DNA of 64,000 nucleotides. It comes from Patescibacteria group bacterium (GTDB lineage Bacteria > Patescibacteriota > Microgenomatia > UBA8517). Location of the stretch: NCBI GenBank assembly GCA_022868165.1, contig JALHYA010000008.1, positions 38,444 through 102,443 of the forward strand, read 5' to 3'. The notes below the pieces were generated by a model. It was given only the letters and a program-made list of their open reading frames with translations. It had not been told where the DNA came from and searched no databases. Shown one piece after another: positions 7,344-51,580 of the stretch (position 1 is its first letter; each line of letters opens with the position of its first letter). The position numbers and the translations under genes were made by a program.

Positions 7344-7381
7344 TGCTAAATGTTAGCACAAAAAAAATGTAAATTCACAAT

Positions 7382-8368: not shown

Positions 8369-8470
8369 CATCCTTAAGCAAACTAAAGTTTGCGGTTCCC
8401 TTTGAATGAGGATGATATATCAGGTTCAATTCCTCCACGAATAAAAATTCGTGGTATCCTTGAAACTGTT

Positions 8471-8668: not shown

Positions 8669-8669
8669 A

Positions 8670-10136: not shown

Positions 10137-10150
10137 TTGACTTATCTGCA

Positions 10151-10840: not shown

Positions 10841-10894
10841 ATATTGACAATATCCGAATATAGATTAATGTCAATAGATGTACAGAATCTTTAA

Positions 10895-30704: not shown

Positions 30705-32378
30705 ATGCAAAAAATAATTAGCCATTTTCTGCCGTTTCTGCTCTTTGTTTTTTTGGCAGGAACCTACTTTTTTGCTTTTTTATCTCAAAATTATGCAAAG
30801 GGAACTTTTGCTACCGATGAACCAGGGGTAGTCATATCTAGTTTAATCCCAAGCAGATCGTTAGCTGCTATTTTTAAAGATGCAGCTATCACCGCACAAC
30901 CACCATTGGAAAGCATTATTAGAGAAAAAATCTATGTTCCATTGGGGAAAGCCTTGGGAGTCAGTAAGATATATCCTGAGTTTTTTCACAGGTTTATATC
31001 CTTCCTGTGGTGGATTATTCCAATTGGTTACCTCTGCCTTCATTTTAAAGAGTTTTCCAGACAAAGAAAACTTACAATAACTTTTGCCTTTTTGTTAATT
31101 GTTAGTACGCCATTTATGAGGTTTTATCTCGCTGAAGCAAGACACTATTCCGCTATCGCCGCCACGTTCGCAACGATGCTGATTATTCTTTTAAGCGACA
31201 ATGTTACCTACTACCAATTAAGATATCGTTTTCTCGTCATATCCTTATTGCCCCCATTACTTCACATTATTTCCTTTCCCTATTGGTTCATCTTAGTTGT
31301 TTTCTTTTTTTATCGGCTAAAGCAAGAGTCTTTTCAAAAGCATAAGGCCCAATTCTTCGATTTGATTACAATCTATGGAATCTATCTTCCTTTTATAATA
31401 TGGATGTACTTTCAAATATCAAAAATTGCTGCTGACTGGCAACGCCCGGATCTAAAAAACATAAGCTTTAGTTTCATTAATATATATTTGAAGTGGACCA
31501 TCGATTGGATATTTTACCAGACCCCCCTTTACCCCATTTTCAAAATCATTCCAAATATATTAAAAAATAACCTTGTAACCCTTTTTGGCATTTTTTCGAT
31601 TCCCTCTTTTCTTTTACTAATTCGTAAAATCTTTCTTTATAATAACAAAGTTCTCGACGTTACGGCAATTTTCCCAATTATAATTACATTTATATGGCCC
31701 CTAACCATTGCCGCAGTAACATTCAGAAGCGGCTATTTCTCTGGAGAAAGATATTCAATTGCAATGCTAACGATTATTTTTTTCGGCCTCTCGAGTATTA
31801 CCTCCAAACTCTTATATAAAATCAAGAATAATAAGATCCGTCACCTTTCTATCTCTCTTGTATTTATTTTAATAGCCTTTTCCCTGTTCCCCAAAATAAT
31901 TTCGGCTAAATATTTCAATTTAGAAACAGCCGAAAACCGTTTTGTAAAAGAAAACAAAAATTTATTAATGGATGGCCGCAACTTTTTAATACTAGATAAT
32001 GGCGGGTATTCATCCTCCATCGCCACATTGGCAGTTATCTTCAATGTCCCTTTAAGAACTCATTACATTGCCTGCCGCGAAGGAACATTCTATTCCAACG
32101 GAAAAAACATTCTAAATGATTGGCTAAAAAGTCATTCCAAAGATAAAGTCTATTTCTTAACAACCGGGATGGATTTGGAAGGAAATAATAAAATAATCTG
32201 GGAATCAGGTCTTGAAAAATTATATCTTCTGGCCAGCTCTATCGGTACCTCCAGTCTTTGCAGTAACCTTGACACATTTGGAGAGTGTTACATGCGTTGT
32301 ACTAAAGGTTATGATCTTTCACCAGACGGACGAAGCATTCCGGGCACGGTATCCTGGCTGGGTATTTATCGCCCCTAA
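30705..32378 (+). CDS. Polytopic membrane protein, putative GT-C-like
   Basis: 557 aa with about 11 TM helices and a C-terminal soluble segment that has several Cys. Function unknown. Confidence 0.3.
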   Translation: MQKIISHFLPFLLFVFLAGTYFFAFLSQNYAKGTFATDEPGVVISSLIPSRSLAAIFKDAAITAQPPLESIIREKIYVPLGKALGVSKIYPEFFHRFISFLWWIIPIGYLCLHFKEFSRQRKLTITFAFLLIVSTPFMRFYLAEARHYSAIAATFATMLIILLSDNVTYYQLRYRFLVISLLPPLLHIISFPYWFILVVFFFYRLKQESFQKHKAQFFDLITIYGIYLPFIIWMYFQISKIAADWQRPDLKNISFSFINIYLKWTIDWIFYQTPLYPIFKIIPNILKNNLVTLFGIFSIPSFLLLIRKIFLYNNKVLDVTAIFPIIITFIWPLTIAAVTFRSGYFSGERYSIAMLTIIFFGLSSITSKLLYKIKNNKIRHLSISLVFILIAFSLFPKIISAKYFNLETAENRFVKENKNLLMDGRNFLILDNGGYSSSIATLAVIFNVPLRTHYIACREGTFYSNGKNILNDWLKSHSKDKVYFLTTGMDLEGNNKIIWESGLEKLYLLASSIGTSSLCSNLDTFGECYMRCTKGYDLSPDGRSIPGTVSWLGIYRP

Positions 32379-32379
32379 T

Positions 32380-34107
32380 TTACTTTAGAATAAGCCTTTC
32401 ATTAAACAACAGGCCATCAAGGTTACTTTCCATAAAAGTCTTATAGGCCGCCTCTGGCGTTCCCACGATCGGGTATCCGTGAAGATTGAAGGATGTATTA
32501 AGAATTGCCCCAACTCCGGTTTCATTCTTAAATTCTTTGATGATGGCATACCACCCTGGATTCCAGCTCTTGCACACCGTCTGGGGTCTTGCAGATAAAT
32601 CCTGTGGATGCAAAGCGGCGATGAAACTTCTGGCGGCAGGCTTTGTATCAAAAGCCTCTATCATATACGGGGAGGCTTTACTGTTTAAAAGATATCTTTC
32701 CATGTCTTCGCTAAGAATTGAGGCAGCAAAGGGCATCCAAAAATCTCTTTGTTTTATTGCTTGATTAATTTTTCTTACATTGTTAAGGCTTCTGGGATCG
32801 GCCATAATACTTCGATTACCCAAGGCTCTTGGCCCCCACTCGTCCCGACCTGAAAACCTCGCGATAATCTTCCCATTGGCAAGAAGCTTGGCTATTTTTT
32901 TAGGACTTACTCTTTTTGCTTTTTTGATTATATTTTTAGATTTCAAAAAATCGGAAATTTGCTCTTCAGTAAACTCCTGCCCATAATAAAGGTCTCTTAA
33001 TTTTGTTTTTCGAGGTTTAATCTTACTCTCTTTGCAATATCTATAGTATCCCTCCAGGGCTGCTCCTACCGGCGTGCCACCGTCATCGGCGGCAGGATAA
33101 AAAAAGGCACCTTTTACTTCCGGCAGTTCTCTAATTAATTTGTTAGCTTTAACGTTTAAAAACGAGCCACCTGCACAAACAACCCTGTTAACATTAGTCT
33201 CTCTAATAGCATTTTCAACCCACTCTATAACTAGCTGTTCGTGAAGCTCTTGTGTCGCTGCAGAAATATTATCAAATCTTTTTTCAGCTAAAATCTTTCT
33301 ATAGATAGGTTGAAGTTTCTTAAGATATTTCCCACTAATATTTTCAAATTCAAGCGGTTTTTTGGGATTTATTCTAATTATGTCTCTAAGTTCATCTATT
33401 ATGTACTCTGATCTTCCGTATGGTGCCAAACCCATAACTTTGTATTCGTGTTCCCAACGCTTTAATCCGAGATATCCAGTAATTTCAGAATAAAGGTTGT
33501 TGGACAAACTGTCATAAAAACTGGTCTCCGATATTCTTTTGATATTATTGCCTTCTCCCACACTAACAGTCGCCGATATGCCGTCTCCCATACCGTCAAG
33601 CGTTAAGATAAGTGATTTATCTTGCCAAGGTCTTTGATAATAAGCACATGCGGCGTGCGTTTGGTGGTGCTCAACAAAAATGATAGGTTTTTTCCTTATG
33701 TCCAACTTTTCAAATAAAGCATAGAGGCCCGGTCGTCCACGAAGCTTACCAAGCATTTTGACGGCAAGTTTCATAATCTTTGTATTATGAATGTGCGGTG
33801 CCACTAACTCCTGGACTGTATGTATGGGATTTTTCTCAACCTGAAGGGGGTTGCCCACTCTTAAATAACAGCCAACGGCAATAAGAGTAACATCTTCTGG
33901 TTTTAATCGCGCTATTTCGAACACCTTTTGAATAGCCAGTGCGGGTACACCAGAATAGTTCTTAATATTATTTAGTCTTTCCTCATTAATAGCGGCAATA
34001 ACAGCCCCGTTTAGTATAAGGGCGGCACCAGCATTGTGTCCGTCGTGAACACCAAGCACTAAAATGTCTCCTTTGCTTTTGCCAGATGTGGTTTGTTTAG
34101 ATTTCAT
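32380..34107 (-). CDS. Carbamoyltransferase (NodU/CmcH/NovN/TobZ family)
   Basis: N-terminal ILVLGVHDGHNAGAALILNGAVIAAINEERLNNIKNYSGVPALAI and HHQTHAACAYY (metal-binding His motif), 575 aa. Confidence 0.8.
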   Translation of the reverse strand: MKSKQTTSGKSKGDILVLGVHDGHNAGAALILNGAVIAAINEERLNNIKNYSGVPALAIQKVFEIARLKPEDVTLIAVGCYLRVGNPLQVEKNPIHTVQELVAPHIHNTKIMKLAVKMLGKLRGRPGLYALFEKLDIRKKPIIFVEHHQTHAACAYYQRPWQDKSLILTLDGMGDGISATVSVGEGNNIKRISETSFYDSLSNNLYSEITGYLGLKRWEHEYKVMGLAPYGRSEYIIDELRDIIRINPKKPLEFENISGKYLKKLQPIYRKILAEKRFDNISAATQELHEQLVIEWVENAIRETNVNRVVCAGGSFLNVKANKLIRELPEVKGAFFYPAADDGGTPVGAALEGYYRYCKESKIKPRKTKLRDLYYGQEFTEEQISDFLKSKNIIKKAKRVSPKKIAKLLANGKIIARFSGRDEWGPRALGNRSIMADPRSLNNVRKINQAIKQRDFWMPFAASILSEDMERYLLNSKASPYMIEAFDTKPAARSFIAALHPQDLSARPQTVCKSWNPGWYAIIKEFKNETGVGAILNTSFNLHGYPIVGTPEAAYKTFMESNLDGLLFNERLILK

Positions 34108-35553
34108 TTAATATCCCAGAAATTGCCTGGATGGTATTGCTATCGTATTACTTCCTACTTTCCCTCCATATACTACCGATATTCCCCCGGGATAGAAAAC
34201 TTTAAAAAAATTGTTATTCGATAAAACATCTTTCAGAACTTGAGTAGGACTCCAAGGAAGAGTTGAATCGTCTTTGGTATCGTAAAAAACGATCGTTTTT
34301 CCTTTATAATTTTCGGCGTTTGTCTGAAAGTACACATAAACATTTTTGGCCGTTTTTGCGCCCTGTGTTATCCAATTCGTTTGATAGGTCAACCTGAGAG
34401 TCAAAATCGATAACAATAGCCAAATGGTTATCAGAAACAGATTTATGATTCTTGATTTAAGATTTATGATTAGATATCCGACTAACATAACTACACCCAC
34501 CAAAGGCAAAGTTAGATAGAAAGTGAATTTGTGCAAAGGCAGAAAAAGAACAGGAACCAAAGTTATAATGAACCACGCGACGCAAAAAAGAATCAAAATT
34601 GTAGATTTACGATTTAAGATTTTAGACTTAAAAGTTAAGAAAAAAATCGATACTGTTTCAACAACAAACAATATAAAAATCGGAATAATCTGACTGGACC
34701 AAAATTTAAAGAGATTGGGATTTAAATGCAGGCCCGGACCTACAAAATCCACCAGCATTTCCGGAAGATTAAATGACCAAAGACCATACCACCCCAATGT
34801 ATTAACGACCCTTTTTATTGAAAAGTCCCAAATATAGCTATCTCCTGTCGCAAATCCATAATGAAAAACCCGTAAATAAAAGTAGCCGGAAAGTATTAAG
34901 AAATAGGGCATGATTAGGCCGGCAAAACGCTTGACTGGTAAACCGGCTTTTTGGTTTCTGGAATAAAAAAATAACAACGTCAGGATGAAAGGCAAGACTA
35001 CTGCGGTTTCCTTGGACATTAGAGCCAAAATAAATGCGGCTATTGAAATCAAATAATAATTTAACCTTGTTTTTTGAAGAAAATCAAAAAAGTAAATTGA
35101 GGCAGCCAAGAAAAATAGTGCCAGCGACAATTCCTGAAAAGCTCCCGCGTAATAAAGGTGGGCAAAATGGGTAGCCGACGTTGCATAAAGAAATGCGGAG
35201 AGCAACGAGATTGTCTCGGATTTTGTTAGTCTTTTAACTAAAAGGTAGACAAGATAAATTATCAGGAAAAAGACGGCAAAAGAAATTAGCCGGTAACTAA
35301 TCGGTTCTAATCCGGATATTGTCCTCCCCAAAAAATAATAAACCTGAACAGACAGAGGCCTGTAATTCGGGAAACCGCCGGAAGAAGACAATAAGTTAAA
35401 GAAACTTAGGAAATCTTTTAGGTTTTGCGCTTTTGAAATAGCGAGGTGAAAAAAATCATCATTAGTAAAAAATGTCGAAAAGGCTGGATAAAAGAGAAGA
35501 AGAGAAATAAGAAATGTTAGGAAAAGATAATGTATGCTCTTAAAAATCCTCAT
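34108..35553 (-). CDS. Polytopic membrane protein, putative GT-C glycosyltransferase
   Basis: About 12 TM helices and an N-terminal loop FFTNDDFFHLAISKAQ (acidic DD motif in the first extracytoplasmic loop). First gene position after a coupled 9-gene operon. Confidence 0.35.
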   Translation of the reverse strand: MRIFKSIHYLFLTFLISLLLFYPAFSTFFTNDDFFHLAISKAQNLKDFLSFFNLLSSSGGFPNYRPLSVQVYYFLGRTISGLEPISYRLISFAVFFLIIYLVYLLVKRLTKSETISLLSAFLYATSATHFAHLYYAGAFQELSLALFFLAASIYFFDFLQKTRLNYYLISIAAFILALMSKETAVVLPFILTLLFFYSRNQKAGLPVKRFAGLIMPYFLILSGYFYLRVFHYGFATGDSYIWDFSIKRVVNTLGWYGLWSFNLPEMLVDFVGPGLHLNPNLFKFWSSQIIPIFILFVVETVSIFFLTFKSKILNRKSTILILFCVAWFIITLVPVLFLPLHKFTFYLTLPLVGVVMLVGYLIINLKSRIINLFLITIWLLLSILTLRLTYQTNWITQGAKTAKNVYVYFQTNAENYKGKTIVFYDTKDDSTLPWSPTQVLKDVLSNNNFFKVFYPGGISVVYGGKVGSNTIAIPSRQFLGY

Positions 35554-36338
35554 TGGTTGTTTAACAAAAATATTGCCACTACCCTACCTATATTGTGTAA
35601 ATAGTGTAACAAAAGTAAAACAGGATTATCTGTATATTTTTCTACAATTTCTTCATCTTCTTTGAGGGTTTTTTTAAATGAGGAAGACGATATGGAACCC
35701 TCGCTAATCCTAAAGCTGGAAAGGTTTGATTTAAGAATCGCCGGCATTTGTACCCGACCGAGCTTTAGCCACAAATCATATTCCATCACAGCAGTTTTTG
35801 TTCCGGTAAACGGGCCATATTTTTTGTAGGCCTTTGAGCTTAGAAAAACCGAAGGCTGCATCAAGTAATTGACAATAAGCAACGATGGATAATGGTTAAT
35901 GGTTAATAGGTAATTTTTATACTTAGTGACCAAGGGAGATATCTTCTTGCCTTTACTGTCTATCATGTCTCCTCTTCCTGCCAACCAAAGAGTCTTTGGA
36001 TGATTGGCAAAATATTCGCCGACCTTTATCAACGCTCCTTTTTTGTAAACATCATCGGCGTTTATATATGCCAGAATAGCTCCCGTCGCCTTCTTCAACC
36101 CATTATTAATAGCATCAACCTGTCCCTTGTCTTTCTTAGATTCCCAACCGATAATTCTCGGGTATTTCGCGGCATACTTCTTAATTATCTCCACGGTTCC
36201 ATCTGTCGAGCCGCCATCTTGAACTATCACTTCCAGGTTTGGATATTTCTGGTCGGCGATTGATTGGAGAGTTGCCTCTATATATTTGACTTTATTGAAA
36301 GACGGAACAATCACGGAGATTTTCGGAAGGCTTCTCAT
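35550..36338 (-). CDS. Family 2 glycosyltransferase
   Basis: ISVIVPSFNKVKYIEATLQSIADQKYPNLEVIVQDGGSTDGT. Confidence 0.75.
   Translation of the reverse strand: MRSLPKISVIVPSFNKVKYIEATLQSIADQKYPNLEVIVQDGGSTDGTVEIIKKYAAKYPRIIGWESKKDKGQVDAINNGLKKATGAILAYINADDVYKKGALIKVGEYFANHPKTLWLAGRGDMIDSKGKKISPLVTKYKNYLLTINHYPSLLIVNYLMQPSVFLSSKAYKKYGPFTGTKTAVMEYDLWLKLGRVQMPAILKSNLSSFRISEGSISSSSFKKTLKEDEEIVEKYTDNPVLLLLHYLHNIGRVVAIFLLNNQ
35887..35914. repeat. Near-tandem heptamer repeat (GTTAATG x3)
   Basis: ggataatggttaatggttaataggtaat inside the GT2 CDS. Related heptamer tracts occur at 42010 and 44847. Confidence 0.4.
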
Positions 36339-36341
36339 TCA

Positions 36342-36686
36342 TTATTTTCTTTTTGGAACCCTGACTCTGTTTTTCGCTTCTTTTCGAACAAATTCTTCAA
36401 ATTTTTTTTCAATATGTCTAGTTCTAATATATGAAGCCGAGGCAACATAAATTGCCAAAATAAGGCCGCCAACAACCATTAAATCAAAGACCCTGGATAT
36501 TGCAAAGGTTAGCGCAAAGGTTCTCAGTATCTCCGGAAAGATAATGGCAAAAATGGTACAAATCCAAATAATAACCCAGGATAATATTTCTACACTGTTA
36601 AGTTCCCTTCTTTTGTAATGAAGGAGAGCGAGATAGACCATCATCAAAGAAAAAAGGATGGCAACTATTTGTAAACCAATTATCAT
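36342..36686 (-). CDS. Small 3-TM membrane protein (DUF2304-like), partner of DPM1-like GT2
   Basis: 114 aa with three hydrophobic helices and a basic C-terminus. This position and size are typical of the small membrane partner found next to polyprenol-phosphate GT2 genes. Confidence 0.4.
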   Translation of the reverse strand: MIIGLQIVAILFSLMMVYLALLHYKRRELNSVEILSWVIIWICTIFAIIFPEILRTFALTFAISRVFDLMVVGGLILAIYVASASYIRTRHIEKKFEEFVRKEAKNRVRVPKRK

Positions 36687-37342
36687 TTAAAAATCCTCCA
36701 GCGAATTACATCAAAAAAGATGCTGAATGCATCCAGAATTGTAACTCCCTTAACCTTGTCATAGTATAAAGTCGACACAGGCACTTCGCAATAATGCAGG
36801 CCTTTGCGAGCGGTTAGAATAGCTATCTCTGTTTCAACTCCATAACCTGTTGATTCCCAATTAAGCTTCTTAAAGGCTTTCCTCGTTATTGCTTTAAAAC
36901 CACAAATCAGGTCAGAAATATAAACTCCAAAAAGTAAAGATATTGTTACCGAGGCCATTTTATTACCGAGGTATCTGTCGACCGGAACCCCATACCCTAA
37001 ATTTCTTGAGCCGAAAACCACATCGTATTTACCCGATTTTAATTTCTCAATAAAAACATTTATATCTTCCGCTTTATGCTGGCCGTCGGAATCCATAAAA
37101 ATCACTGCGTCTGCACCCATATCAAAAGCCTCCTCCACACCGGTCTTTAACGCAGCTCCTTTGCCAAGGTTTACGCGATGTCGAAAAACGTAGGGAGTAT
37201 ACCTTCGTGCAATTTGATAGGTTTTGTCTGTTGAGCCATCGTCAACCACCACAACCGATTGTTTGGCCTTCCTTAACGAAGCAAGGACAGCACCAATCCT
37301 TTTCTCCTCATTATATGCCGGAACTACGACGAAAATTTTCAT
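36683..37342 (-). CDS. GT2 polyprenol-phosphate sugar synthase (DPM1-like, soluble)
   Basis: MKIFVVVPAYNEEKRIGAVLASL...VVVVDDGSTDKT and MDSDGQH (DxD), 219 aa, matching Dpm1/GtrB catalytic domains. Confidence 0.7.
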   Translation of the reverse strand: MKIFVVVPAYNEEKRIGAVLASLRKAKQSVVVVDDGSTDKTYQIARRYTPYVFRHRVNLGKGAALKTGVEEAFDMGADAVIFMDSDGQHKAEDINVFIEKLKSGKYDVVFGSRNLGYGVPVDRYLGNKMASVTISLLFGVYISDLICGFKAITRKAFKKLNWESTGYGVETEIAILTARKGLHYCEVPVSTLYYDKVKGVTILDAFSIFFDVIRWRIFK

Positions 37343-38469
37343 GCAATCCAGTAGCCTCGCACGAAAAGCGAGGTTGCTACGGCAAGTGTAGCAAAAAGAA
37401 GCAGATATACCAGAAGTTTGACCGTTTTATGCTGTTTGGAAAGCCACAGGGCCATAAGGAGAAATCCCGGGAAAAGAATTAAAGCATACCGGGGAAAAGA
37501 AGAAAAGCTGCCGGCGAGACTCGGAATAAGAAATCCTAAGGCCAGATACACAGAATAGCTTAATCTAAGTCTAAGAAAAGAAAGAACGGAAAGAACCAAA
37601 AACAAAATAGCGGTAATAATTTCAAGATACGTACTGAATACGACCGGAAAATATGAATAATTCAGACTGGGCAATATTTTAAAGAAGTACCTATAAAAAA
37701 CTTGGGGAAAAAGCACGAAATTCGAAGAACGCTGTGCTCCGAAAATGCCAACCGTATGTAAAAAATTCAGCGGATCACCCGTGACTATATATAAATAATG
37801 CATATAGATTCCAAGTCCCAAAGGAACAAGAAAAATCCAGACAACCAATAGCCAAGATTTTCTGCGGGCCTGCCACCATTCCACAAGCAAAGCAGGAAAA
37901 AGCGCCAGTCCCAAAATTCGGGTCAGAGAAGATAATCCACCCAAAGTTCCCGACCAGAACCATCTTGATTTTCTGGCAAAATAAAATGACCAAGCCGCTA
38001 AAGCAAAAAATAAAGACTCCGTGTAATAACTTCCGAAATAAAACGAGGTCGGAAAAAGAAGAGTCAAGAAAATTGTTGTAACCGCTATCTCCTTCTCATA
38101 ATCAAGTCGGACAAGTTTCCACAAACCGACCAATCCGGCCAAAAAAGCTACGTTGGAAATCACAAGACCCGAAATGGCTAGGTTTATGAAAGAATGACCA
38201 AAAGACAGAAATCTTGCCAACAGCGGGAACAGAGGGAAAAAGAAGTATGTTAACGGCTGATAGCCCTGATAAGAAATTGCTAAGTAATGTTCTCCGTCAA
38301 AGTTGAGCCAGGACCAAAACCACGGGGCAGAAGGATAATTGGCCAGTCCCCCACCCAGAAAATTTTTCTGCAGCGTCAAAAATAGCGGCGCAAGAAAAAC
38401 AAAAAGAATCAGAAGTGCTCTCCAGGAAAGAAAACTTAACAACAACAATTTAATTTCTTTCTTCGTCAT
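37339..38469 (-). CDS. PIG-V/GT76-like (Mannosyl_trans2) polytopic mannosyltransferase
   Basis: WLNFDGEHYLAISYQGYQPLTYFFFPLFPL closely matches the PIG-V/Gpi18 signature (WDxEHYLxIAxxGY...AFFPxFPL). About 9-10 TM helices. Confidence 0.6.
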   Translation of the reverse strand: MTKKEIKLLLLSFLSWRALLILFVFLAPLFLTLQKNFLGGGLANYPSAPWFWSWLNFDGEHYLAISYQGYQPLTYFFFPLFPLLARFLSFGHSFINLAISGLVISNVAFLAGLVGLWKLVRLDYEKEIAVTTIFLTLLFPTSFYFGSYYTESLFFALAAWSFYFARKSRWFWSGTLGGLSSLTRILGLALFPALLVEWWQARRKSWLLVVWIFLVPLGLGIYMHYLYIVTGDPLNFLHTVGIFGAQRSSNFVLFPQVFYRYFFKILPSLNYSYFPVVFSTYLEIITAILFLVLSVLSFLRLRLSYSVYLALGFLIPSLAGSFSSFPRYALILFPGFLLMALWLSKQHKTVKLLVYLLLFATLAVATSLFVRGYWIA

Positions 38470-39494
38470 TCCCCAACAACTTTCCTATATACCTTGACCG
38501 TTTCCTTGGCAGTTTTATCCCAGGAGAAATCTTTTATTCTTCTAAGGCCTTTTTCTATCAGTTCTTCTCTCAAATTTCTGTTCTCGATAACTCTTTTTAT
38601 GCCTGCCGCAATATCTTTGGGATTTCCAGGGTCAACAAAAATCGCTGCATCATCTCCAATCTCGACCAGCGCTTGCGTTTTTGATGCCACCACCGGAACT
38701 CCACAGGCAAAGGCCTGGACAACCGGCAAACCGAAGCCTTCATAAAATGATGGCTGGCAATAAACAGTCGCGAGGTTGATTATTTTTACCAAATCTTCAT
38801 CGGGAACATAACCCAAGCGTAATGAGTGACTTAAGATTAAAGATTTATGAGTTAAGAGATGGGAAAGTTCGGGGTGAATTAAACTCATCTTCTCCAAATC
38901 CGCGGCTTGCTTACCGACTATGACAAGGGGTGTATTAATAATCTTGCAGGCTTCAACCAAAGCGGGGATGTTTTTGTTGTAGTTGATGTCGCCAACATAG
39001 AGAACAAAGCGCTCGGGTAAACCGTAGCGCTTTACAACATCCGACATCCAGCTTCCCACCTCCAACTTCCTGAACATTTCGCCGGCTGCCTCGTAGGTAA
39101 CGAAAATTTTCTCGGCAGGGATTCCTAGAAATCTAACAATATCTTTCTTGGAGGTCTCCGAAACCGTAATTATTGCATCGGCTTTCTTAACTGCATTTTT
39201 TTGAATCCGATAGCGGATTGCCCCTTTTAGTCCGGACGGATACTGCTTCGGATAAATAAGCGGTATAAGGTCATGAATTGTAACTATGGTTTTGACATTA
39301 TTATTGACAGGAAGCGTTAAAAAGAAAGGATTGAAATACGGATAGTGGATTATGTCAAAATCTTTCTCGACCAATTCTATTTCTTTAAGTTTTTCTAAGT
39401 GGGATATCAGTTGTGACGTATAAAATCCCACTCCCCTTACAACATCTCCGGAAATCAACGGCTTCGTGTCAACCTTAACTTTTATTTTGTTCAT
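38466..39494 (-). CDS. GT4-family glycosyltransferase
   Basis: VYCQPSFYEGFGLPVVQAFACGVPVVASKTQALVEIGDDAAIFVDP (EX7E motif). Confidence 0.8.
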   Translation of the reverse strand: MNKIKVKVDTKPLISGDVVRGVGFYTSQLISHLEKLKEIELVEKDFDIIHYPYFNPFFLTLPVNNNVKTIVTIHDLIPLIYPKQYPSGLKGAIRYRIQKNAVKKADAIITVSETSKKDIVRFLGIPAEKIFVTYEAAGEMFRKLEVGSWMSDVVKRYGLPERFVLYVGDINYNKNIPALVEACKIINTPLVIVGKQAADLEKMSLIHPELSHLLTHKSLILSHSLRLGYVPDEDLVKIINLATVYCQPSFYEGFGLPVVQAFACGVPVVASKTQALVEIGDDAAIFVDPGNPKDIAAGIKRVIENRNLREELIEKGLRRIKDFSWDKTAKETVKVYRKVVGE

Positions 39495-40288
39495 TTCCAG
39501 TTAATCAATTTGTTTTTAACCGAAGGATTGTTGAGTATTTGCCAATATTTAAAATAAGCAATTGGAAAATGTAGTCCGGAGAAAAGATCGAAAACAAATC
39601 CATACATTCCGTCCCTAATACCTCTATGCCTAATAAGAAGCATCACAAATGTCCATAGGGGCTTCGCCGTTGACCACCAAAACAAATGGAATACATCGAC
39701 TGGATATTTTTTATTTTCAAGCTCTAGGGCAGTAAGAGTTGTGTAACGATTCGCGTTTACCAGATACTTATTGAAAGTCGGTGCCGTATGGTGCTCCATC
39801 GGGTTCTCCAGCGTTCCGACGGAGCCATCTATTTGAGCTTGCTCGTGAACGCTGACTTGAGGAAGGTGACCCTTTCCTCTTCTGAATAGTCTGATTGTAG
39901 AATCCGGCCACATCCCGCTTCCTTTCATCCAGTGACCCAAAAAGTAATTTTTTCTTTTTATCCAAAACCCGTTATTTTTTTCTTTTGGGCTTTCAACAAC
40001 TTTTCGAATTTCGTTAGCAAGTGCGGGAATAACTCTCTCGTCGGCATCGAGCTGTAATATCCAATCCCCCGTTGCCGAATCAATCGCCTTTTGTTTTGTA
40101 ATGTGGAAAAGCGGTTCATGCTTAACCTTAAAAACCTTTGCACCCAGACTTTCCGCTATTTCTCGAGTTTTGTCCGTTGAAGATTCATCAAAAACGATTA
40201 TCTCGTCGACAATCTCCTTAACCGACCTCAAACATTCGGCTATATTTTTCTCCTCGTTAAAAGTGGCAAGAACAACTGAGAGTTTCAT
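39491..40288 (-). CDS. Family 2 glycosyltransferase (paralog of the GT2 at 62476-63222)
   Basis: MKLSVVLATFNEEKNIAECLRSVKEIVDEIIVFDESSTDKT. The C-terminal NYFLGHWMKGSGMWPDSTIRLFRRG parallels NFLLGHEMHWGGWWPDYVLRLIRKD in the other copy. Confidence 0.75.
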   Translation of the reverse strand: MKLSVVLATFNEEKNIAECLRSVKEIVDEIIVFDESSTDKTREIAESLGAKVFKVKHEPLFHITKQKAIDSATGDWILQLDADERVIPALANEIRKVVESPKEKNNGFWIKRKNYFLGHWMKGSGMWPDSTIRLFRRGKGHLPQVSVHEQAQIDGSVGTLENPMEHHTAPTFNKYLVNANRYTTLTALELENKKYPVDVFHLFWWSTAKPLWTFVMLLIRHRGIRDGMYGFVFDLFSGLHFPIAYFKYWQILNNPSVKNKLINWK

Positions 40289-41550
40289 ATTAGTTTTGCT
40301 ACCCGCTCACCCAATTCTATCGCAAAATTTGAACCTCTATCCCATGGGTGAATTTGCTGCATATTGGCGATATAAAGACCTTTAATGGGACTTTCCAACG
40401 AAGGCATTTTTTGGGAATAATTAAGCGGAGCTATCGGCTGGGCAAAAAATGCTGGAAACTTGTATGCCTTCTTAATCCAAGACTTATCAAAGTCCGGACT
40501 TATCTTTTTGAGATGTGGAGTAAATTCCTCTATCAGCTGCTCTGTGGAATAATCAAAAAACGGATGAGTCGGCTCCAAATAATTACCGACATAAAGAAGT
40601 CTTTCTCCATCATAATATTTTGGGTCCATGAAATTCGTGTGCTCTACTACTGCCAAAAACGGCATTTTGTCGTTAACGTTAAGCCAGTAGGTCCCGTCTT
40701 TGAAAAATTGTTGCTTAAGTGAAAGGAGTAAATTAAATGCCGCTATTCCTTTTAAACTTAAGAGCTTCTTTTTGTATAAATCCGGTAATTGTGATGTCAG
40801 TTTAACGAAGTAAAGAAAAGGCAAGGTGCAAATAACCTTATCAAAGATATATTCCCCCTTTTTGGTCTTTACGGTCAAGTTTCCACCCTTTTTAATAATA
40901 TTTTCAACCCGGGTGTCGTAATATATTTTTGCCTTGTTTGTTTCTAGTATTTTTTTCTCGAGAGCGTCTACATATGCCTGAAAACCCCCTTCGGGGTAAA
41001 CCAAGGTTGCACTTCTTTTTTTAATTCTTGCCCAAAACCATGAGGCCGGAATATCTTTGGCATATTTACCGAATTTAGACCTAAAAAGAGGCTCCCATAG
41101 AACTTTCCATGATTTATTTCCCATCGTTTTTCTTAAAAATTTTTCCGCCTTAACTCCTTCAAGAGATTTCCACGAAGAAAAATACCTTAAATAGGCAATA
41201 ACAACACCGGTTCTAATCCTATCGATCACTGAAAGGTGGGGAAACTTCAAAAGTTTTATCGGAGAATCAATTTGATAAACTTTGCCTTTATAAAGGGTGG
41301 ATGTTTGGGCGCGCTCAAAAATAAGTTTAACTCCAATCCTTTCGGCGAGGCTGCGTATCGGCCAGTCTGACGTAAACCAATGGTGATAATGTTTTTCGAT
41401 TGTCCATATCCAATTCGACTCTTTAAAGCCAAGGGCCAGCCCTCCGGGTTTTGAGTCCGCCTCAAAGACGGTAACATCCATTCCCTTTTGGGTTAATTTC
41501 TCTGCGGCCGCAAGGCCTGTAAATCCTGCTCCGATTATTCCTACTTTCAT
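40285..41550 (-). CDS. NAD(P)/FAD-dependent oxidoreductase (amine-oxidase / protoporphyrinogen-oxidase-like fold)
   Basis: N-terminal KVGIIGAGFTGLAAAEKLTQKGMDVTVFEADSKPGG (dinucleotide-binding motif), YPEGGFQAYVDAL and a C-terminal GLYIAN...GSNFAIELGERVA, as in HemY/amine-oxidase family proteins. Confidence 0.6.
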   Translation of the reverse strand: MKVGIIGAGFTGLAAAEKLTQKGMDVTVFEADSKPGGLALGFKESNWIWTIEKHYHHWFTSDWPIRSLAERIGVKLIFERAQTSTLYKGKVYQIDSPIKLLKFPHLSVIDRIRTGVVIAYLRYFSSWKSLEGVKAEKFLRKTMGNKSWKVLWEPLFRSKFGKYAKDIPASWFWARIKKRSATLVYPEGGFQAYVDALEKKILETNKAKIYYDTRVENIIKKGGNLTVKTKKGEYIFDKVICTLPFLYFVKLTSQLPDLYKKKLLSLKGIAAFNLLLSLKQQFFKDGTYWLNVNDKMPFLAVVEHTNFMDPKYYDGERLLYVGNYLEPTHPFFDYSTEQLIEEFTPHLKKISPDFDKSWIKKAYKFPAFFAQPIAPLNYSQKMPSLESPIKGLYIANMQQIHPWDRGSNFAIELGERVAKLI

Positions 41551-41553
41551 TTT

Positions 41554-43209
41554 TTAGTTTGCGACTATCTCGAAATATATGTATCCGTTTTCACCATAAA
41601 TTTTCTTGACTATATTCGCCTCATTCGGAATTTCGTCGGGGGTTCCAATTATCATGCTATTCGGGTTTCCGGTCTGAATTTTAGCAAAATCGATGGGCTC
41701 AAAGTAATATTTGCCGAAATTTCGCACAGTTGAGAACCCGTACTTATCCCTTGGAATCAGGGTGTGCTCTTTTTGGAACTGCGCCGGAGGATACTTCATG
41801 GAATAACCGTCTACGCCGTAGAAAAGAAAAAGAATGTATGGCTGGTCGTATCGGTCGGTAATAAATACCTTTTGATATTTGAACTGATTTGCTTCGACAT
41901 ATGAGACCAATTCTTTTACTCCGTACTGTGAAGAAAACGGATATTCTTTTGCAATATGGACGTAATACATGTGTAAGTATCGCGTGAGAGACCACGCGAT
42001 TACAATGATCAATGACCAATGGCCAATGGCCAATAAAGATTTTCTTTGTCGTTTTAGCCAATCCAGAATTGTAATAAGACCGAAGGAAGAGATAATAACC
42101 AAAGGTATAACCATATTTTGTGCCCTCAAGGCAGAGGGAGACTGAAAGGTTAGGGCTGATGCCAATGGGGCGATAATCAACCAAAGCAACACTACTCCCC
42201 ATCCCTTGGAGTTTTTGACGACTGCCATAAGTCCGGCGGCCAAAAACAAAATATCGAAAAGATACATTTGCCCCGTTTCCGGTACTTTATTTCTTTGAAC
42301 GCTGTCTCCCGTCATAAACAAAAATTCTCCGTCGAAGTGTTTTGCCCAATTTCCCAAAAACGCCAGGCCATAATTAACCGCTTTGTTATGATAAACTTTT
42401 GCCACCAAGCTGGTAAAATCACCGTGTTCCCCTCTTTGCTCATTGATTCTAGACAGGGGTCCGGGATCTGCAAAAAGTCCAACTCCTGCTATCCTGGAAA
42501 GCACGGCTGTTCCCGTCAAATCCTTAGCCAAAGGCACCAACAAAAGAATTAAGAATAAGGAATTAAGAATTAAGAACTTAATATTCTGTTTCTTAAATAA
42601 TACCTTTCGATAAATAATTACCAATCCCAATCCTAAAAGCGGGGCAACTATCCTTGCTGCGTGGTAGGCATATAAAGATAGAGCAAATGCAATAACGGAG
42701 AGCGCAAAATATAGAATAACCCACTTCGTGGTAGAATTTTTTAGTCCCTTTAAGAAAAGCCAAACACCCAGAACTATTAGAAACGTTGCCGTATTTACTT
42801 CCCAGCCGCCCCGGGAAAACTGCAAGTGCCATGGACTAATTGCCAGAAAGAAACTTGATGCCAGCGCAAGCCTTTCGTCATCAAACAGCTCTTTTATCAA
42901 AAAGTACAAGATAACTACCGTCAAAACTCCTAAGGCTGCCCCGGGAATTCTAACCGACCAAACATTAAGACCGAAAAATTTTACAAACGGAAGAACCACG
43001 TAGAAGTAAAGTCCGGGTTTGTAATCGTTGAAAGATTGAAAATGAATGGGCCAAGAATTCCCGTGTTCATCCATTCCTGTTTGTATCAGGGAATAGACGT
43101 TATACCCTATTGCCGCCTCATCCGCATTAAGAGCCGGATAATCTCCAAGGCGGTAAAACCTTAAGATAAAGGCAAGCAAAATAATCGCCAAAAGAATAAA
43201 TTTCTTCAT
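41554..43209 (-). CDS. ArnT/PMT-family (GT83/GT39-like) polytopic glycosyltransferase, paralog 1
   Basis: LNADEAAIGYNVYSLIQTGMDEHGNSWPIHFQSFNDYKPGLYFY is the hallmark ArnT/PMT first periplasmic loop (DExxxxY...G.DE.G...P...F.D.KP). 551 aa with a conserved C-terminal domain. Confidence 0.8.
   Translation of the reverse strand: MKKFILLAIILLAFILRFYRLGDYPALNADEAAIGYNVYSLIQTGMDEHGNSWPIHFQSFNDYKPGLYFYVVLPFVKFFGLNVWSVRIPGAALGVLTVVILYFLIKELFDDERLALASSFFLAISPWHLQFSRGGWEVNTATFLIVLGVWLFLKGLKNSTTKWVILYFALSVIAFALSLYAYHAARIVAPLLGLGLVIIYRKVLFKKQNIKFLILNSLFLILLLVPLAKDLTGTAVLSRIAGVGLFADPGPLSRINEQRGEHGDFTSLVAKVYHNKAVNYGLAFLGNWAKHFDGEFLFMTGDSVQRNKVPETGQMYLFDILFLAAGLMAVVKNSKGWGVVLLWLIIAPLASALTFQSPSALRAQNMVIPLVIISSFGLITILDWLKRQRKSLLAIGHWSLIIVIAWSLTRYLHMYYVHIAKEYPFSSQYGVKELVSYVEANQFKYQKVFITDRYDQPYILFLFYGVDGYSMKYPPAQFQKEHTLIPRDKYGFSTVRNFGKYYFEPIDFAKIQTGNPNSMIIGTPDEIPNEANIVKKIYGENGYIYFEIVAN
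42010..42034. repeat. Near-tandem heptamer repeat (CAATGRC x3.5)
   Basis: aatgaccaatggccaatggccaat, encoding LAIGHWSLII within the ArnT-like paralog 1. Confidence 0.4.
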
Positions 43210-43233
43210 AACTTCATAAGTTTCAAGCTTTGC

Positions 43234-44895
43234 TTATTTCACCTCCACTATTCTAAAAGCAACTGTACCATCGAGATATCTTATTTCTTTTATTGGCTTT
43301 ACAAAGTTTGAATTATTGGCATCTTCGGACGGAATAATGATGGGATCAGCAACAACTAATGTTCCGTGCTCTTTTTTATTAATCGGCCAATCTATTGCCG
43401 TGAACTGAATATTATCAAGTTTGGTGTGATATCCTACGTCAGCTACGTTTTCGCTGGGGACAAGCTCAGCCGTTTTTTGATATTTGGCGGGGTCGTACCG
43501 CTGAAAAAACAAAAAATAAATATAGGGCTGTGCAAACGATTGCTGTACTTTTATGGTCTTATACTGCGACTGGATTGAGGTAACCGTTTGGACTATTTGT
43601 TTGTAGCCATAATCCCAATATTGAGAGTTATGCTTCAGTTGATGGACAAAATATTCTTCTAAGAAATAAGAATAGTTAATCAAATAAATAAAAACAAAAA
43701 GACCCAAGAGCCATTTTTTCCATTTGAAAAGTTGGGTTAACCCTACTGCCGACATTATTATCAGAGGAACAGCGAGAGCGAATGCGCGAACGGAGTGGAC
43801 CTCGTTGCGAGATAAAGCTGCCGGAAGGGGTGCCAGAACCATCCATAGGAATACAAACAGAACTTCTTTCTTTACTCCCATGCGAACAAGGCCAATAAAT
43901 CCGGCAATTAGAAGAATTAAATCCGCAAAAATAAATACGCCGACATAGGGAGCCGATTGCCTCGGATTGGACCAGTCGCCCTCAAAAAACAGGAACCTTC
44001 CTGAAAAATGATTAAACCACCTACCCAGAATTGCTCTCTTAAAATTTAGCGTTTCCGAATGGAAAATATAATAGGAAAGACTGCCGATTTTTTCGTTTCC
44101 TTCCGACAAAAAAGCCGTGAGAGATTCTGTTGTCCTCGGGTAGGAAAAAATACTAAAGACGTTAAGTCTGCCTGTTTCTCCTCGAAAAAGACTGATGAAA
44201 ATAGGAATTGCTATTACGATTCCTATGAGGACCGAAGCTCCAAGTATTTTCTTGGATGCAGAAAATATTTCGCGCCAATAAAGTAAAAGCAAAATTATCA
44301 CTACAATCCCTGTCGCCAGTTTTGCCCCTTGGTAAGCAAGAAGGGTTAGAGAAAAGAAAATCGAGGATAAAATCAAGAACTTTGGTTTTTCCAAAAATTT
44401 CAGGAAGAAGTAAATTCCTGCCAAAGTAAGGGTGAGGGCTATATTTGCTTCCCATGCCCCACGAGACAGATATAGAAACCAGGGGTTGATGGCCGCAAGG
44501 AATGCGGCACAGATGGCCAGTAACTTATTATTAGCAAATAGTTTTGAAACGATAAGATATATAAGGAAAACCGAAAAAATACCTGCAAGGGCGCTGGGAA
44601 ATCTGGTAGCAAACTCCGTCAAACCAAAAACGGCTACCGGAGGAACAGTTAAATAAACATAAAGTCCGGGTTTATAATCGCCGAAGGATTTGAAAATAAC
44701 CGGCAAAAACTTTCCGTATTCGTCTCTTCCGGTTTTTATTATCGAGAAAGCGTTATAGCCCAATGCCGCTTCGTCCGCGTCAAGCGAGGGAGGATTGGAA
44801 CCCAAGTTCCAAAAACGCAATATTGCGGCCAAGAGAAAAATTATAGTTAATGGCCAATGGCTAATGGCTAATTTTCTAATTTGCATATATTTCAA
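43234..44895 (-). CDS. ArnT/PMT-family polytopic glycosyltransferase, paralog 2
   Basis: LDADEAALGYNAFSIIKTGRDEYGKFLPVIFKSFGDYKPGLYVY. Confidence 0.8.
   Translation of the reverse strand: MKYMQIRKLAISHWPLTIIFLLAAILRFWNLGSNPPSLDADEAALGYNAFSIIKTGRDEYGKFLPVIFKSFGDYKPGLYVYLTVPPVAVFGLTEFATRFPSALAGIFSVFLIYLIVSKLFANNKLLAICAAFLAAINPWFLYLSRGAWEANIALTLTLAGIYFFLKFLEKPKFLILSSIFFSLTLLAYQGAKLATGIVVIILLLLYWREIFSASKKILGASVLIGIVIAIPIFISLFRGETGRLNVFSIFSYPRTTESLTAFLSEGNEKIGSLSYYIFHSETLNFKRAILGRWFNHFSGRFLFFEGDWSNPRQSAPYVGVFIFADLILLIAGFIGLVRMGVKKEVLFVFLWMVLAPLPAALSRNEVHSVRAFALAVPLIIMSAVGLTQLFKWKKWLLGLFVFIYLINYSYFLEEYFVHQLKHNSQYWDYGYKQIVQTVTSIQSQYKTIKVQQSFAQPYIYFLFFQRYDPAKYQKTAELVPSENVADVGYHTKLDNIQFTAIDWPINKKEHGTLVVADPIIIPSEDANNSNFVKPIKEIRYLDGTVAFRIVEVK
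44847..44873. repeat. Near-tandem heptamer repeat (TAATGGC x3)
   Basis: taatggccaatggctaatggctaat, encoding LAISHWPLT near the N-terminus of ArnT-like paralog 2. Confidence 0.4.
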
Positions 44896-46564
44896 AAGCA
44901 GGATTTCCGTCCAAAAACTTAATTGTTTCCAATTTCTTCCACTCCGAAGGGTAATTTCCGGGACCGGTTATCAATAAACATTTGGAAATTGTGCAATCCA
45001 CACTGCCTTTGCTTTCCAGAACAAATGTTTGTCCACTTTTGGGAATCTGCCAATCATTCACAAAATAAAACTTATCGAGCCTGTCTACCCAATACCAACC
45101 GGACTGGAAAAATCTTATCGCACTGGAGTCATTTTGATATTTGGCCGGGTCCCAGGGCCAATAGAAGAGGAAAAATTCGTGCGGCTCCCCGTATTTTTTG
45201 GTAACAATTATCTTGTCGTACTTGGAATAGTTTGCCTTGGTGTATTCGACAGCCTGTCTATATCCATACTGCCAGGACCACGAATAAGTTCGCGGATACT
45301 TTATAAAGTAGTTGATAAGATAGCTTTCGGCAAAAAAGTATATACCGATTAAGTAAAGCGCAACTAATATGCTCTTATATTTTCCGGCAGTTTTTTTGTT
45401 TAAATAATCAAAAACAAAAAATGCGCCAAGTGCCGATAAAATTTGTGGCAATGGCAGCATTGTCGAAATCCTGGTCACGGCAAAGTGCTCATTGGTAATA
45501 GCTCCCGGTATCGGACTTAATAGAAGCCAAACTAAAATAAATTGATAATCCGTAGAATCTTTCGCTCGTTTAAGAAGTATTAAGAGTCCCAGATAAAAAA
45601 ACGGCAAGTTGATTAAATAAGAAAGCCCAAAACCCGGAAGGCTATATTGATATTGAGTTCCCCCGTTTAGAAAAAGGAATTTTGGCGAGAAATATTCAAG
45701 ATAATTCTTTGTAAATTGAGAAGCGAAATAGGTTGGACGGTTATAAACAACTTTTGAAATTAAAACGGGGAGTTTTGAATTATTTCTATTCTCGATAATT
45801 TTATTTACCGCTGATTGATTTATTATAAAAAGCCACTGGCCTCTGGCTCTGGAGCTGGGTTCCAATATTATTGCGGCGGCCAACACAAGGAACGACAAAA
45901 CCACAGATATCAAAAGAGCAAACAAAAATCCACCCTTTTTAAATAACGACTTAAAATCTTGACGATAAATAATAACCGCGGCAACCAAAATCATCGGAGA
46001 GAAAATTCTTGTTGAATGATAAGCAAAGAGCGACAAAAAGAGCGAAACAAGCGACAAGGGCAAAAGATATTTGCTTTTATGCCAATTGAAAAATGCTGCC
46101 ATAGCTGTAACAAGAAGAAAAATGGAAACGTTTTGTTGAAGCACAATTCGTGAGGTAAACAACGTCCATGGCTCAACTGCAACCAAAAAAGATGCCAATA
46201 AAGCCAGCCCCCGCCGCTTCGTTAATCCTAACGCCAGGAAGTATGTTGCGACTACTGTTAATACGCCCAATATCACATGAGGAAAACGAATCGAAAATGC
46301 GTTTAGCCCAAAAACTACAATCGATGGAATCGTAATATATAAATTTAAAGGTAGAGGATAATCTCCATAAGCCCGAAAGTTTACTAAAGGAAATTTCTGT
46401 CCCCATTGATCGGCACCAGTCTTTAATATCGAATAAGCGTTATAACCGTGCGAAATCTCGTCCCAATTAAGCGCTGGTGGAAATTTATCCAGGTAAGCAA
46501 ATCTGAGAGCAAAGGCAAGAATAACAGTAAAAACAAATAAGGCCAAATATTTATATTTCGTCAT
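44876..46564 (-). CDS. ArnT/PMT-family polytopic glycosyltransferase, paralog 3
   Basis: LNWDEISHGYNAYSILKTGADQWGQKFPLVNFRAYGDYPLPLNLY. Confidence 0.75.
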   Translation of the reverse strand: MTKYKYLALFVFTVILAFALRFAYLDKFPPALNWDEISHGYNAYSILKTGADQWGQKFPLVNFRAYGDYPLPLNLYITIPSIVVFGLNAFSIRFPHVILGVLTVVATYFLALGLTKRRGLALLASFLVAVEPWTLFTSRIVLQQNVSIFLLVTAMAAFFNWHKSKYLLPLSLVSLFLSLFAYHSTRIFSPMILVAAVIIYRQDFKSLFKKGGFLFALLISVVLSFLVLAAAIILEPSSRARGQWLFIINQSAVNKIIENRNNSKLPVLISKVVYNRPTYFASQFTKNYLEYFSPKFLFLNGGTQYQYSLPGFGLSYLINLPFFYLGLLILLKRAKDSTDYQFILVWLLLSPIPGAITNEHFAVTRISTMLPLPQILSALGAFFVFDYLNKKTAGKYKSILVALYLIGIYFFAESYLINYFIKYPRTYSWSWQYGYRQAVEYTKANYSKYDKIIVTKKYGEPHEFFLFYWPWDPAKYQNDSSAIRFFQSGWYWVDRLDKFYFVNDWQIPKSGQTFVLESKGSVDCTISKCLLITGPGNYPSEWKKLETIKFLDGNPAFEIYAN

Positions 46565-49876: not shown

Positions 49877-49877
49877 A

Positions 49878-51560: not shown

Positions 51561-51580
51561 AAACCTTATCTAAGATGATA

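Follow-up and report, generated by a model that had tools for sequence, protein, structure and literature searches.

In Streptococcus pyogenes, the glycosyltransferase family 2 (GT2) protein GacI makes GlcNAc-phosphate-undecaprenol for the addition of GlcNAc side chains to the group A carbohydrate. GacJ, a DUF2304 protein with three transmembrane (TM) segments encoded immediately downstream of GacI, forms a complex with it that lowers the Km for undecaprenyl phosphate about 17-fold and raises the Vmax more than 300-fold; the GT-C-type glycosyltransferase GacL places the sugar on polyrhamnose, and a role in flipping the lipid has been proposed for the Wzx protein GacK. In Mycobacterium tuberculosis, galactosamine modification of the arabinogalactan depends on PpgS (Rv3631) and Rv3632, a DUF2304 protein that stimulates PpgS, which together make polyprenyl-phosphate-GalNAc, and on the GT-C protein Rv3779, which uses it. 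Here, we describe a glycan locus of a bacterium of the Candidate Phyla Radiation (CPR, Patescibacteria), lying in the 64,000-nucleotide stretch of contig JALHYA010000008.1 that we analyzed in full (hereafter the window) and centered on positions 34108–41550. We propose, with a probability of roughly 0.72, that this locus of more than 30 kb would decorate a cell-surface polymer or proteins by the bacterial route of a lipid-phosphate sugar used by a GT-C enzyme, employing two gene modules and a flavin adenine dinucleotide (FAD) enzyme. The genes of the central region, all on the minus strand, are the following.

34108–35553, minus strand: polytopic GT-C of the PMT_2 type, 481 aa (PF13231, 7e-11), two genes downstream of DUF2304
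35550–36338, minus strand: GT2, 262 aa (PF00535, 1e-30), third gene of the mobile cassette described below
36342–36686, minus strand: DUF2304 membrane protein, 114 aa, three predicted TM segments (PF10066, 9e-15, 55.2 bits against a cut-off of 25.5)
36683–37342, minus strand: short TM-less GT2, 219 aa, predicted polyprenyl-phosphate sugar synthase of the GacI/PpgS/dolichol-phosphate mannose synthase (DPMS) type
37339–38469, minus strand: putative PIG-V/Gpi18-like GT-C membrane glycosyltransferase, 376 aa (PF04188 matches of orthologues, GT-C fold model)
38466–39494, minus strand: GT4 (GT-B) glycosyltransferase, 342 aa (PF00534, 1e-29), constant upstream neighbor of the PIG-V-like gene
39491–40288, minus strand: soluble GT2, 265 aa (PF00535, 1e-19), in the conserved block GT2–GT4–PIG-V-like
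40285–41550, minus strand: FAD flavoenzyme, 421 aa, family PRK07233/NF005560, with the amine-oxidase/protoporphyrinogen oxidase (PPO)/phytoene desaturase (PDS) fold

The 219-aa GT2 (PF00535, 3.7e-29) carries DDGS and DSDGQH motifs, and a Kyte-Doolittle scan gave no convincing TM segment. Its best solved relative is the DPMS of Pyrococcus furiosus (PDB 5mlz, E = 7e-13 over residues 1–215), in keeping with an initial annotation of the sequence that had placed a soluble DPM1-like GT2 here. The same annotation had proposed a DUF2304-like partner with three TM segments, which the PF10066 score and the predicted topology uphold: the DUF2304 open reading frame (ORF) lies immediately downstream of the GT2 and overlaps it by ATGA. 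By analogy with GacJ and Rv3632, its product is predicted to be the partner and activator of the 219-aa GT2. A lipid-phosphate-sugar synthase feeding a GT-C enzyme, as had been suggested, remains the best reading of a locus that combines a TM-less GT2, a DUF2304 protein and GT-C genes.

The label "eukaryote/archaea-type" does not hold, and the mannose that came with it is not indicated. GT2, DUF2304 and GT-C form an experimentally characterized bacterial arrangement, known from S. pyogenes and M. tuberculosis, and the window genes, which match those systems in parts and in order, would work in the same way. In NCBIfam, the 219-aa GT2 matches the GalNAc synthase PpgS best (NF058614, 4.9e-36) and the archaeal AglJ next (1e-31). 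At 124.3 bits against an equivalog cut-off of 370, the GT2 is not itself a PpgS equivalog or orthologue, and the match suggests at most a weak, sub-threshold lean to HexNAc rather than mannose.

We then considered which GT-C enzyme goes with this synthase. Eighty metagenome loci encoding orthologues of the 376-aa protein were collected and annotated with hidden Markov models (HMMs) built from verified members; annotation of neighbors by single-sequence phmmer was too insensitive and was replaced by clustering, Pfam scans of representatives and these home-built HMMs. Downstream counts refer to 36 non-duplicate loci whose downstream flank reaches at least 5 kb, upstream counts to 31 loci with enough flank. 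The PpgS-like GT2 and DUF2304 genes were found together in 15 of the 36 loci and neither ever occurred without the other. They were accompanied by the 262-aa GT2 in 14 of these 15 loci and followed by the 481-aa PMT_2 GT-C in 10, some of the remainder ending at contig ends. The pair directly adjoins the PIG-V-like gene in only 4 of the 36 loci and is absent from the 9 kb downstream of it in 21. Upstream, the PIG-V-like gene has other partners: a GT4 immediately next to it in 28 of 31 loci (also in loci L003, L006, L009, L021 and L085–L087); an array of PMT-like GT-C genes is found in 26 of the 31, an orthologue of the 265-aa GT2 in 25 and the FAD gene in 11. Because the co-inheritance of the cassette and the upstream partners of the PIG-V-like gene differ in this way, we divide the region into two modules: a mobile cassette (GT2 synthase, DUF2304, GT2, PMT_2 GT-C) and a conserved core (GT-C array, optional FAD gene, GT2, GT4, PIG-V-like GT-C). 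The synthase and the 481-aa GT-C would be the most economical pairing, the latter most likely being the cognate transferase of the cassette. Use of the GT2/DUF2304 donor by the PIG-V-like enzyme is possible, though not indicated.

This division bears directly on the pairing put forward at first, in which a eukaryote/archaea-type Dol-P-Man synthase, made of the DPM1-like GT2 and its small partner, feeds polyprenol-phosphate-mannose specifically to the adjacent PIG-V-like mannosyltransferase. Of the co-occurrence on which that idea could be checked, the association of GT2 with DUF2304 held (15/15), and adjacency to the PIG-V-like gene did not (4/36): the cassette travels with the 262-aa GT2 and the 481-aa GT-C, and the PIG-V-like gene with GT4, GT2 and the GT-C array. 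We regard such a dedicated mannose route as unlikely. The ATGA overlap between the two genes in the window, the recurrence of this adjacency in L009 and the four metagenome loci, the rank of DPMS as best solved relative and the PF04188 matches in orthologues of the PIG-V-like protein are set against a pair that 21 of 36 loci lack in the 9 kb downstream and that elsewhere brings its own PMT_2 GT-C, a best curated match to a HexNAc synthase and not to a mannose synthase, an arrangement already documented in bacteria, and other genomes in which a Wzx flippase or an ABC-2 transporter stands after the PIG-V-like gene. In L085–L087, the place directly after it is taken by a Wzx (Polysacc_synt) flippase, accompanied by a GT2, and in L003 by an ABC-2 exporter. 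The conserved block also shows insertions between its GT2 and GT4 genes, namely a Y1 transposase in L086 (6678–7361) and an AbiEii/DUF6922 toxin-antitoxin-like pair in L087 (7978–8896), and an adh_short short-chain dehydrogenase/reductase (SDR) is found at about the same place in L003 and L086.

The 376-aa protein itself has at least eight hydrophobic TM segments by Kyte-Doolittle scan and contains the motif quoted in the initial annotation, NFDGEHYLAISYQGYQPLTYFFFPLFPL. Its first external loop bears an invariant NFDGEHY motif, in which N55, F56, D57, G58 and H60 are unchanged in 32 relatives, and we infer that D57 is equivalent to a catalytic Asp. Thirteen of 32 orthologues matched PF04188 (those doing so at 54–61% identity), 9 matched PMT_2 and 6 GT87; five scanned singly scored 27.5–36.1 bits against the PF04188 cut-off of 22.4, over profile positions of about 46–205 of 443, the N-terminal third. 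Relatives carry the JGI name "Gpi18-like mannosyltransferase". The PF04188 check thus divides: taken literally, the window protein's lack of a match refutes PIG-V membership, and the orthologues sustain the family link, which we keep because they pass the profile. A profile built from the 32 orthologues found no match among PDB sequences at E ≤ 10. The AlphaFold2 model (pLDDT 86, pTM 0.89) retrieved with Foldseek only GT-C enzymes (STT3/PglB/AglB, ALG9, ALG12, ALG3, ArnT, GPI-MT-I, PimE, AftA/B) and the GT-C-like subunit PIGU. On the strength of this model and of its orthologues, we conclude that the protein is probably a GT-C transferase at the fringe of the PIG-V family, outside Pfam membership as far as the window sequence goes. 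No GPI-pathway context was seen among the Pfam-annotated genes of the window.

Alternatively, the 376-aa protein could be a Wzy/WaaL-like polymerase or ligase acting on a diphosphate-linked oligosaccharide after the upstream GT2 and GT4 have assembled it and it has been flipped. This we find improbable, although cytoplasmic GT2 and GT4 genes consistently precede the 376-aa gene, Wzx comes directly after its orthologue in L085–L087 and an ABC-2 exporter in L003, and its size and TM count resemble those of polymerases. Orthologues match the PF04188, PMT_2 and GT87 profiles, and Foldseek ranks the monophosphate-donor GT-C enzymes ALG9/12, ArnT, PimE and AftB together with oligosaccharyltransferases, with no Wzy or WaaL in the top 50; moreover, flipping by Wzx can extend to monophosphate-linked sugars, the role put forward for GacK.

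The FAD enzyme had been singled out at first as unusual in such a context. Instead, it is a conserved optional member of the related loci (the 11 of 31 counted above) and also occurs in GT-C loci of other phyla. By sequence, the 421-aa protein is a full member of PRK07233, a large uncharacterized family (NF005560: 426.1 bits, E = 1.4e-127, cut-off 252, residues 1–420 aligned to profile positions 1–427 of 435), and matches Pfam Amino_oxidase at 1e-28. The family comprises 1268 representatives (clusters at 50% identity, E ≤ 1e-30) from Microgenomates (CPR), Chloroflexota (41–43% identity) and a few Proteobacteria. An AlphaFold2 model (pLDDT 93) gave PPO (2ive), plant PDS (5mog, TM-score 0.84) and monoamine oxidase (MAO) as top Foldseek matches, and the family profile aligned over its full length in the PDB only to MAO-A and MAO-B. 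The helical domain is rich in Trp, Lys and Arg and not clearly amphipathic by hydrophobic-moment analysis. The invariant positions of the enzyme include H53, H55, H56, R112, K158, R174, R178 and R404. A literature search returned nothing relevant on PRK07233, LPG_synthase_TM, DUF2298, Agl23 or GT-C in Patescibacteria.

A function for this enzyme is suggested by its neighbors. We counted 54 loci of FAD homologues with at least 6 kb of flank, drawn from CPR, Chloroflexota and Proteobacteria. In 44 of them a PMT_2 GT-C, a DUF2298 protein, an LPG_synthase_TM protein or an ArnC-like GT2 is encoded within 5 kb, and these glycosylation or flippase-like genes usually abut the FAD gene on the same strand; the polytopic DUF2298 membrane protein is itself probably GT-C-like. 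An SDR lies nearby in only 11 of the 54 loci. Natural fusions repeat the association: P0383 (824 aa) joins LPG_synthase_TM, which resembles the flippase domain of MprF, to the FAD domain, and P0363 (1447 aa) reads GtrA, FAD, GT2, GT2. Two further fusions, P0243 (666 aa) and P0343 (835 aa), have as partners a SAM methyltransferase and an unannotated 400-aa N-terminal region. In Iodobacter violaceini HSC-16F04 (NZ_JAAOLX010000003.1, about 418.9–424.4 kb; positions 5832–11308 of locus L067), DUF2298, an ArnC-like GT2, LPG_synthase_TM and the FAD gene form an isolated same-strand cassette flanked by unrelated genes (an AraC regulator, YidB, a ferredoxin and an OmpR/histidine-kinase pair).

In Levybacteria-type genomes, the FAD gene is followed by a GT-C, then by a second GT-C or a DUF2298 gene, then by an SDR epimerase or LCP gene. 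This block, which is found in Levybacteria/Chisholmbacteria-type genomes and in one Limnocylindrales metagenome-assembled genome, always lies immediately downstream of genes for pilus assembly, which encode PilO, a protein of 100 aa and an Ig-like protein of 460 aa (loci L008, L010, L014, L017, L020, L022, L029, L040, L041, L065, L068 and L070, at around 7.5–16 kb in each), and could point to glycosylation of pilin or of surface proteins.

The linkage and the fusions point to a lipid-linked substrate in the membrane, on which the enzyme would act within GT-C glycosylation systems. We tentatively suggest that it may be an unrecognized fourth component of polyprenyl-phosphate-sugar/GT-C systems, associated with the membrane and remodeling the lipid-linked donor before or after flipping. 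Its target could be the sugar, through oxidation to an epimer, a keto sugar or an amino sugar or through ring isomerization, which would be analogous to DprE1 with another fold. It could also be the chain, through desaturation or saturation of the polyprenyl that would yield a dedicated carrier lipid, an option suggested by its nearest characterized relatives (HpnE, CrtI/CrtD and phytoene desaturase), which act on isoprenoids; PPO, its other near relative by sequence or fold, acts on a tetrapyrrole. As a rough split, we would give slightly over a third of the likelihood to tailoring of a lipid-linked sugar, somewhat under a third to the carrier lipid, about a fifth to a soluble sugar and the remaining seventh or so to an unrelated substrate.

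It is very unlikely that the protein is instead a UDP-galactopyranose mutase (UGM, Glf) or another nucleotide-sugar enzyme, and hence an ordinary part of a furanose pathway. The glycan-locus setting, the N-terminal dinucleotide-binding motif shared with UGM and the many invariant Arg, His, Tyr and Trp residues that would suit a phospho-sugar ligand are outweighed by the lack of a GLF Pfam match, an alignment to UGM (4dsg) over residues 2–58 only as against full length for MAO, a Foldseek top 50 of PPO, PDS and MAO folds from which UGM is absent, and fusions to membrane flippase-like domains; since the protein is not Glf, the ordinary galactofuranose explanation that the initial annotation had set as a possible refutation does not apply. 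Also very unlikely is a housekeeping protoporphyrinogen oxidase or carotenoid desaturase present in the locus by chance, given that the JGI label of its relatives (protoporphyrinogen oxidase), the rank of PPO and PDS as best structural matches and weak NCBIfam matches to HpnE, HemY and CrtI stand against scores far under the cut-offs (HpnE 73.3 bits against 283.05, HemY 51.1 against 97.85, CrtI 48.2 against 238.1, only the fold being shared), adjacency and fusion to glycosylation and flippase genes kept across three phyla, and no haem or carotenoid genes among the Pfam-annotated window proteins (about 45 of 55 ORFs of at least 150 aa) or in the related loci examined.

Combining these assignments, the locus may work as follows. 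In the mobile cassette, or module A (37342 to 34108), the 3-TM DUF2304 protein would anchor the 219-aa GT2 to the membrane and stimulate it, and the GT2 would use a nucleotide sugar to glycosylate polyprenyl phosphate on the cytoplasmic side. A flippase would then turn the lipid-linked sugar across the membrane, and the 481-aa PMT_2 GT-C would pass it to an acceptor outside; the 262-aa GT2 within the module may be a further cytoplasmic transferase. Module B (40288 to 37339), with GT2, GT4 and the PIG-V-like protein, would be the part of the conserved core that follows the PMT-like GT-C array, and the PIG-V-like protein would again be a GT-C transferase with a lipid-linked donor. Between the array and module B, the FAD enzyme would be an optional tailoring component; its most likely site of action is the membrane, where it would modify the sugar or the polyprenyl chain of the lipid-linked donor.

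Several observations weigh against this scheme. For all the proteins, the assignments draw on sequence, model and context. The 219-aa GT2 reaches 124 of the 370 bits asked for PpgS, a distance so large that sugar specificity is not transferable to it. A Pfam search up to E = 10 returned no match for the 376-aa window protein, which stays short of the PF04188 cut-off of 22.4 bits, and the Foldseek matches of its model to GT-C enzymes are weak (E 4e-4 to 5e-2, TM-scores 0.4–0.5). The cassette does stand directly beside the PIG-V-like gene in the window, in L009 and in 4 of the 36 metagenome loci. The home-built HMMs detected no GtrA, LPG_synthase_TM, DUF2298 or Wzx flippase in the window and left polytopic proteins outside Pfam unassigned. 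Finally, in Chloroflexota the FAD gene mainly adjoins a flippase-like protein alone, one without a proven role in glycosylation.

The central region belongs to a much longer series of genes. The initial annotation had described it as a nine-gene operon; the tight same-strand packing is confirmed, and the count is not, as the ORF listing has eight minus-strand ORFs within 34108–41550, at the coordinates first given, and nine is reached only with the abutting carbamoyltransferase gene (32380–34107) or the upstream GT-C gene (41554–43209). Reading the junctions on the sequence bore out the ATGA-type overlaps and adjacent genes: six junctions are overlaps of an ATG start with a TGA stop (−4 nt), two have 3-nt gaps (41551–41553 and 36339–36341), and the 481-aa GT-C and carbamoyltransferase genes meet with 0-nt spacing (34107/34108). 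Compact operons commonly show such runs. We trust the assigned start codons, since conserved domains begin at the N-termini and orthologues match the 376-aa protein over 100% of its length; the FAD protein begins with MKVGIIGAGFTG, at its GxGxxG motif, and the GT2s begin at conserved N-termini, as with MKIFVVVPAYNEE. The DUF2304 start is preceded, at a distance of 9 nt, by a GGAGG. A scan of the region for consensus promoters and terminators gave chance-level matches only.

Positions 34108–41550 are a slice of a co-directional train of at least 26 genes, which extends from a point beyond 63929 down to 32380 and contains no intergenic gap longer than 45 nt, so that the limits first drawn for the operon are arbitrary and the train extends past both. 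Upstream of 43209, apparent overlaps of 20–179 nt (e.g., 59199–60110 with 59932–61497) arise from TTG or GTG starts of longest ORFs; they are probably mis-called starts, and the spacing there is likely as tight as in 34108–41550. The neighboring features of note are these.

32380–34107, minus strand: NodU/CmcH-type carbamoyltransferase, 575 aa (Carbam_trans_N 1e-37, Carbam_trans_C 1e-57), last gene of the train
41554–53287, minus strand: seven tandem GT-C paralogues of 551–568 aa (Pfam: five PMT/PMT_2-like, two PTPS_related-like)
55056–56012, minus strand: ArnC/GtrB-type GT2, 318 aa, with a C-terminal hydrophobic region (residues 238–298, about two TM segments) and PDB matches
56058–57497, minus strand: PMT_2 GT-C, 479 aa (PF13231, 3e-10), adjoining the ArnC-like GT2

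The carbamoyltransferase is likely a sugar O-carbamoylase. The 318-aa GT2 matches ArnC (9bhc, 5e-45) and GtrB (5ekp, 6e-33) in the PDB and is predicted to be a second polyprenyl-phosphate sugar synthase of the same train. The seven GT-C paralogues share 28–34% pairwise identity, and the array order 560b-562-553-551 is kept in L003 and L006, which rules out recent tandem duplication; the array is ancient and maintained. Further upstream, the train encodes an AsnB-type amidotransferase and more GT2, GT4 and methyltransferase genes (Pfam/NCBIfam).

In the window as a whole, glycan genes reach back to about 12.5 kb, and about 12500–64000 is almost wholly given to glycan biosynthesis, with a DegT aminotransferase, FkbM and SAM methyltransferases, many GT2 and GT4 proteins, SDR, AsnB and the carbamoyltransferase. 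At least 11 GT-C genes are present, including the array, those at 56058–57497 and 34108–35553, and one at 1929–3623. The closest relatives are Woesebacteria and other Microgenomates. A DUF5667 gene (30203–30685, plus strand) converges on the end of the operon, and DUF5667 genes also occur inside the orthologous glycan loci L085 and L087. Four large window proteins have no Pfam match (59932–61497, 27592–29130 and 19542–21470 on the minus strand, 30705–32378 on the plus strand). Those of 521 and 512 aa are polytopic, with 10–13 predicted TM segments, and the former shows weak similarity to a GT-C paralogue (E = 8e-5); the four could be a flippase, a polymerase or further GT-C-like enzymes.

CPR bacteria have very small genomes, and their surface glycans probably mediate attachment to host cells; we know of no experimental work on these glycans. 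Against this background, at least roughly 50 kb of the 64-kb window are given to glycan synthesis, GT-C transferases being present at least 11 times over. The GacIJL/PpgS-like assignment provides the locus with a concrete, testable mechanism and corrects the gene pairing proposed at first. The linkage and fusions of the flavoenzyme are a by-product of greater value and the part worth following up: the four-gene cassette of a cultured Iodobacter strain offers a tractable model in which a possible lipid-linked glycosylation step becomes testable. By analogy, the core appears to be an instance in CPR bacteria of a known bacterial lipid-phosphate-sugar/GT-C scheme, and the unusual features of the locus are the PIG-V-like GT-C, the conserved array of ancient GT-C paralogues and the associated flavoenzyme.

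Set beside described systems, the locus resembles DPM1 with DPM2/3 in having a TM-less catalytic GT2 anchored by a small membrane protein, and PIG-V/Gpi18 (GT76) in the motif region W..(F/W)D..(H)Y..IA..GY....FFP of its GT-C and the PF04188 matches of orthologues. It differs from both in that DUF2304 is neither DPM2 nor DPM3, the window protein fails PF04188, the genes are not consistently linked and mannose is unsupported. For the FAD enzyme only, an analogy is the formation and use of decaprenyl-phosphate-arabinose by DprE1, DprE2, the GtrA-like Rv3789 and AftA, where DprE1 has the vanillyl-alcohol-oxidase fold. The two share a flavoenzyme encoded alongside GT-C transferases that use a lipid-phosphate sugar, a GtrA-like or flippase-like protein and, in many cases, an SDR; unlike DprE1, the window enzyme has the PPO/PDS/MAO fold, and an SDR is near in 11 of 54 loci and in the Iodobacter cassette not at all.

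The GtrA/GtrB/GtrV and ArnC/ArnE-F/ArnT systems follow the same logic of synthase, flippase and GT-C, and the 318-aa GT2 is a clear ArnC/GtrB homologue beside a PMT_2 GT-C. In contrast to GtrB-type synthases, which have their own TM helices, the mobile cassette pairs a TM-less synthase with DUF2304, and no GtrA was found. PpgS is the best curated family match of the 219-aa GT2; Rv3779, however, is described as a separate, non-adjacent gene, whereas the window GT-C lies inside the same four-gene cassette. With respect to the Gac system, the locus differs in its CPR host, in its GT-C genes (at least 11 instead of one, one of them PIG-V-like), in the flavoenzyme and carbamoyltransferase added to the train, and in that no Wzx or GtrA was found in the window. 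It shares with it the order of GT2 and DUF2304, which is that of gacI–gacJ, a GT-C in the same locus and, in the orthologous CPR loci L085–L087, a Wzx beside the GT-C that recalls GacK.

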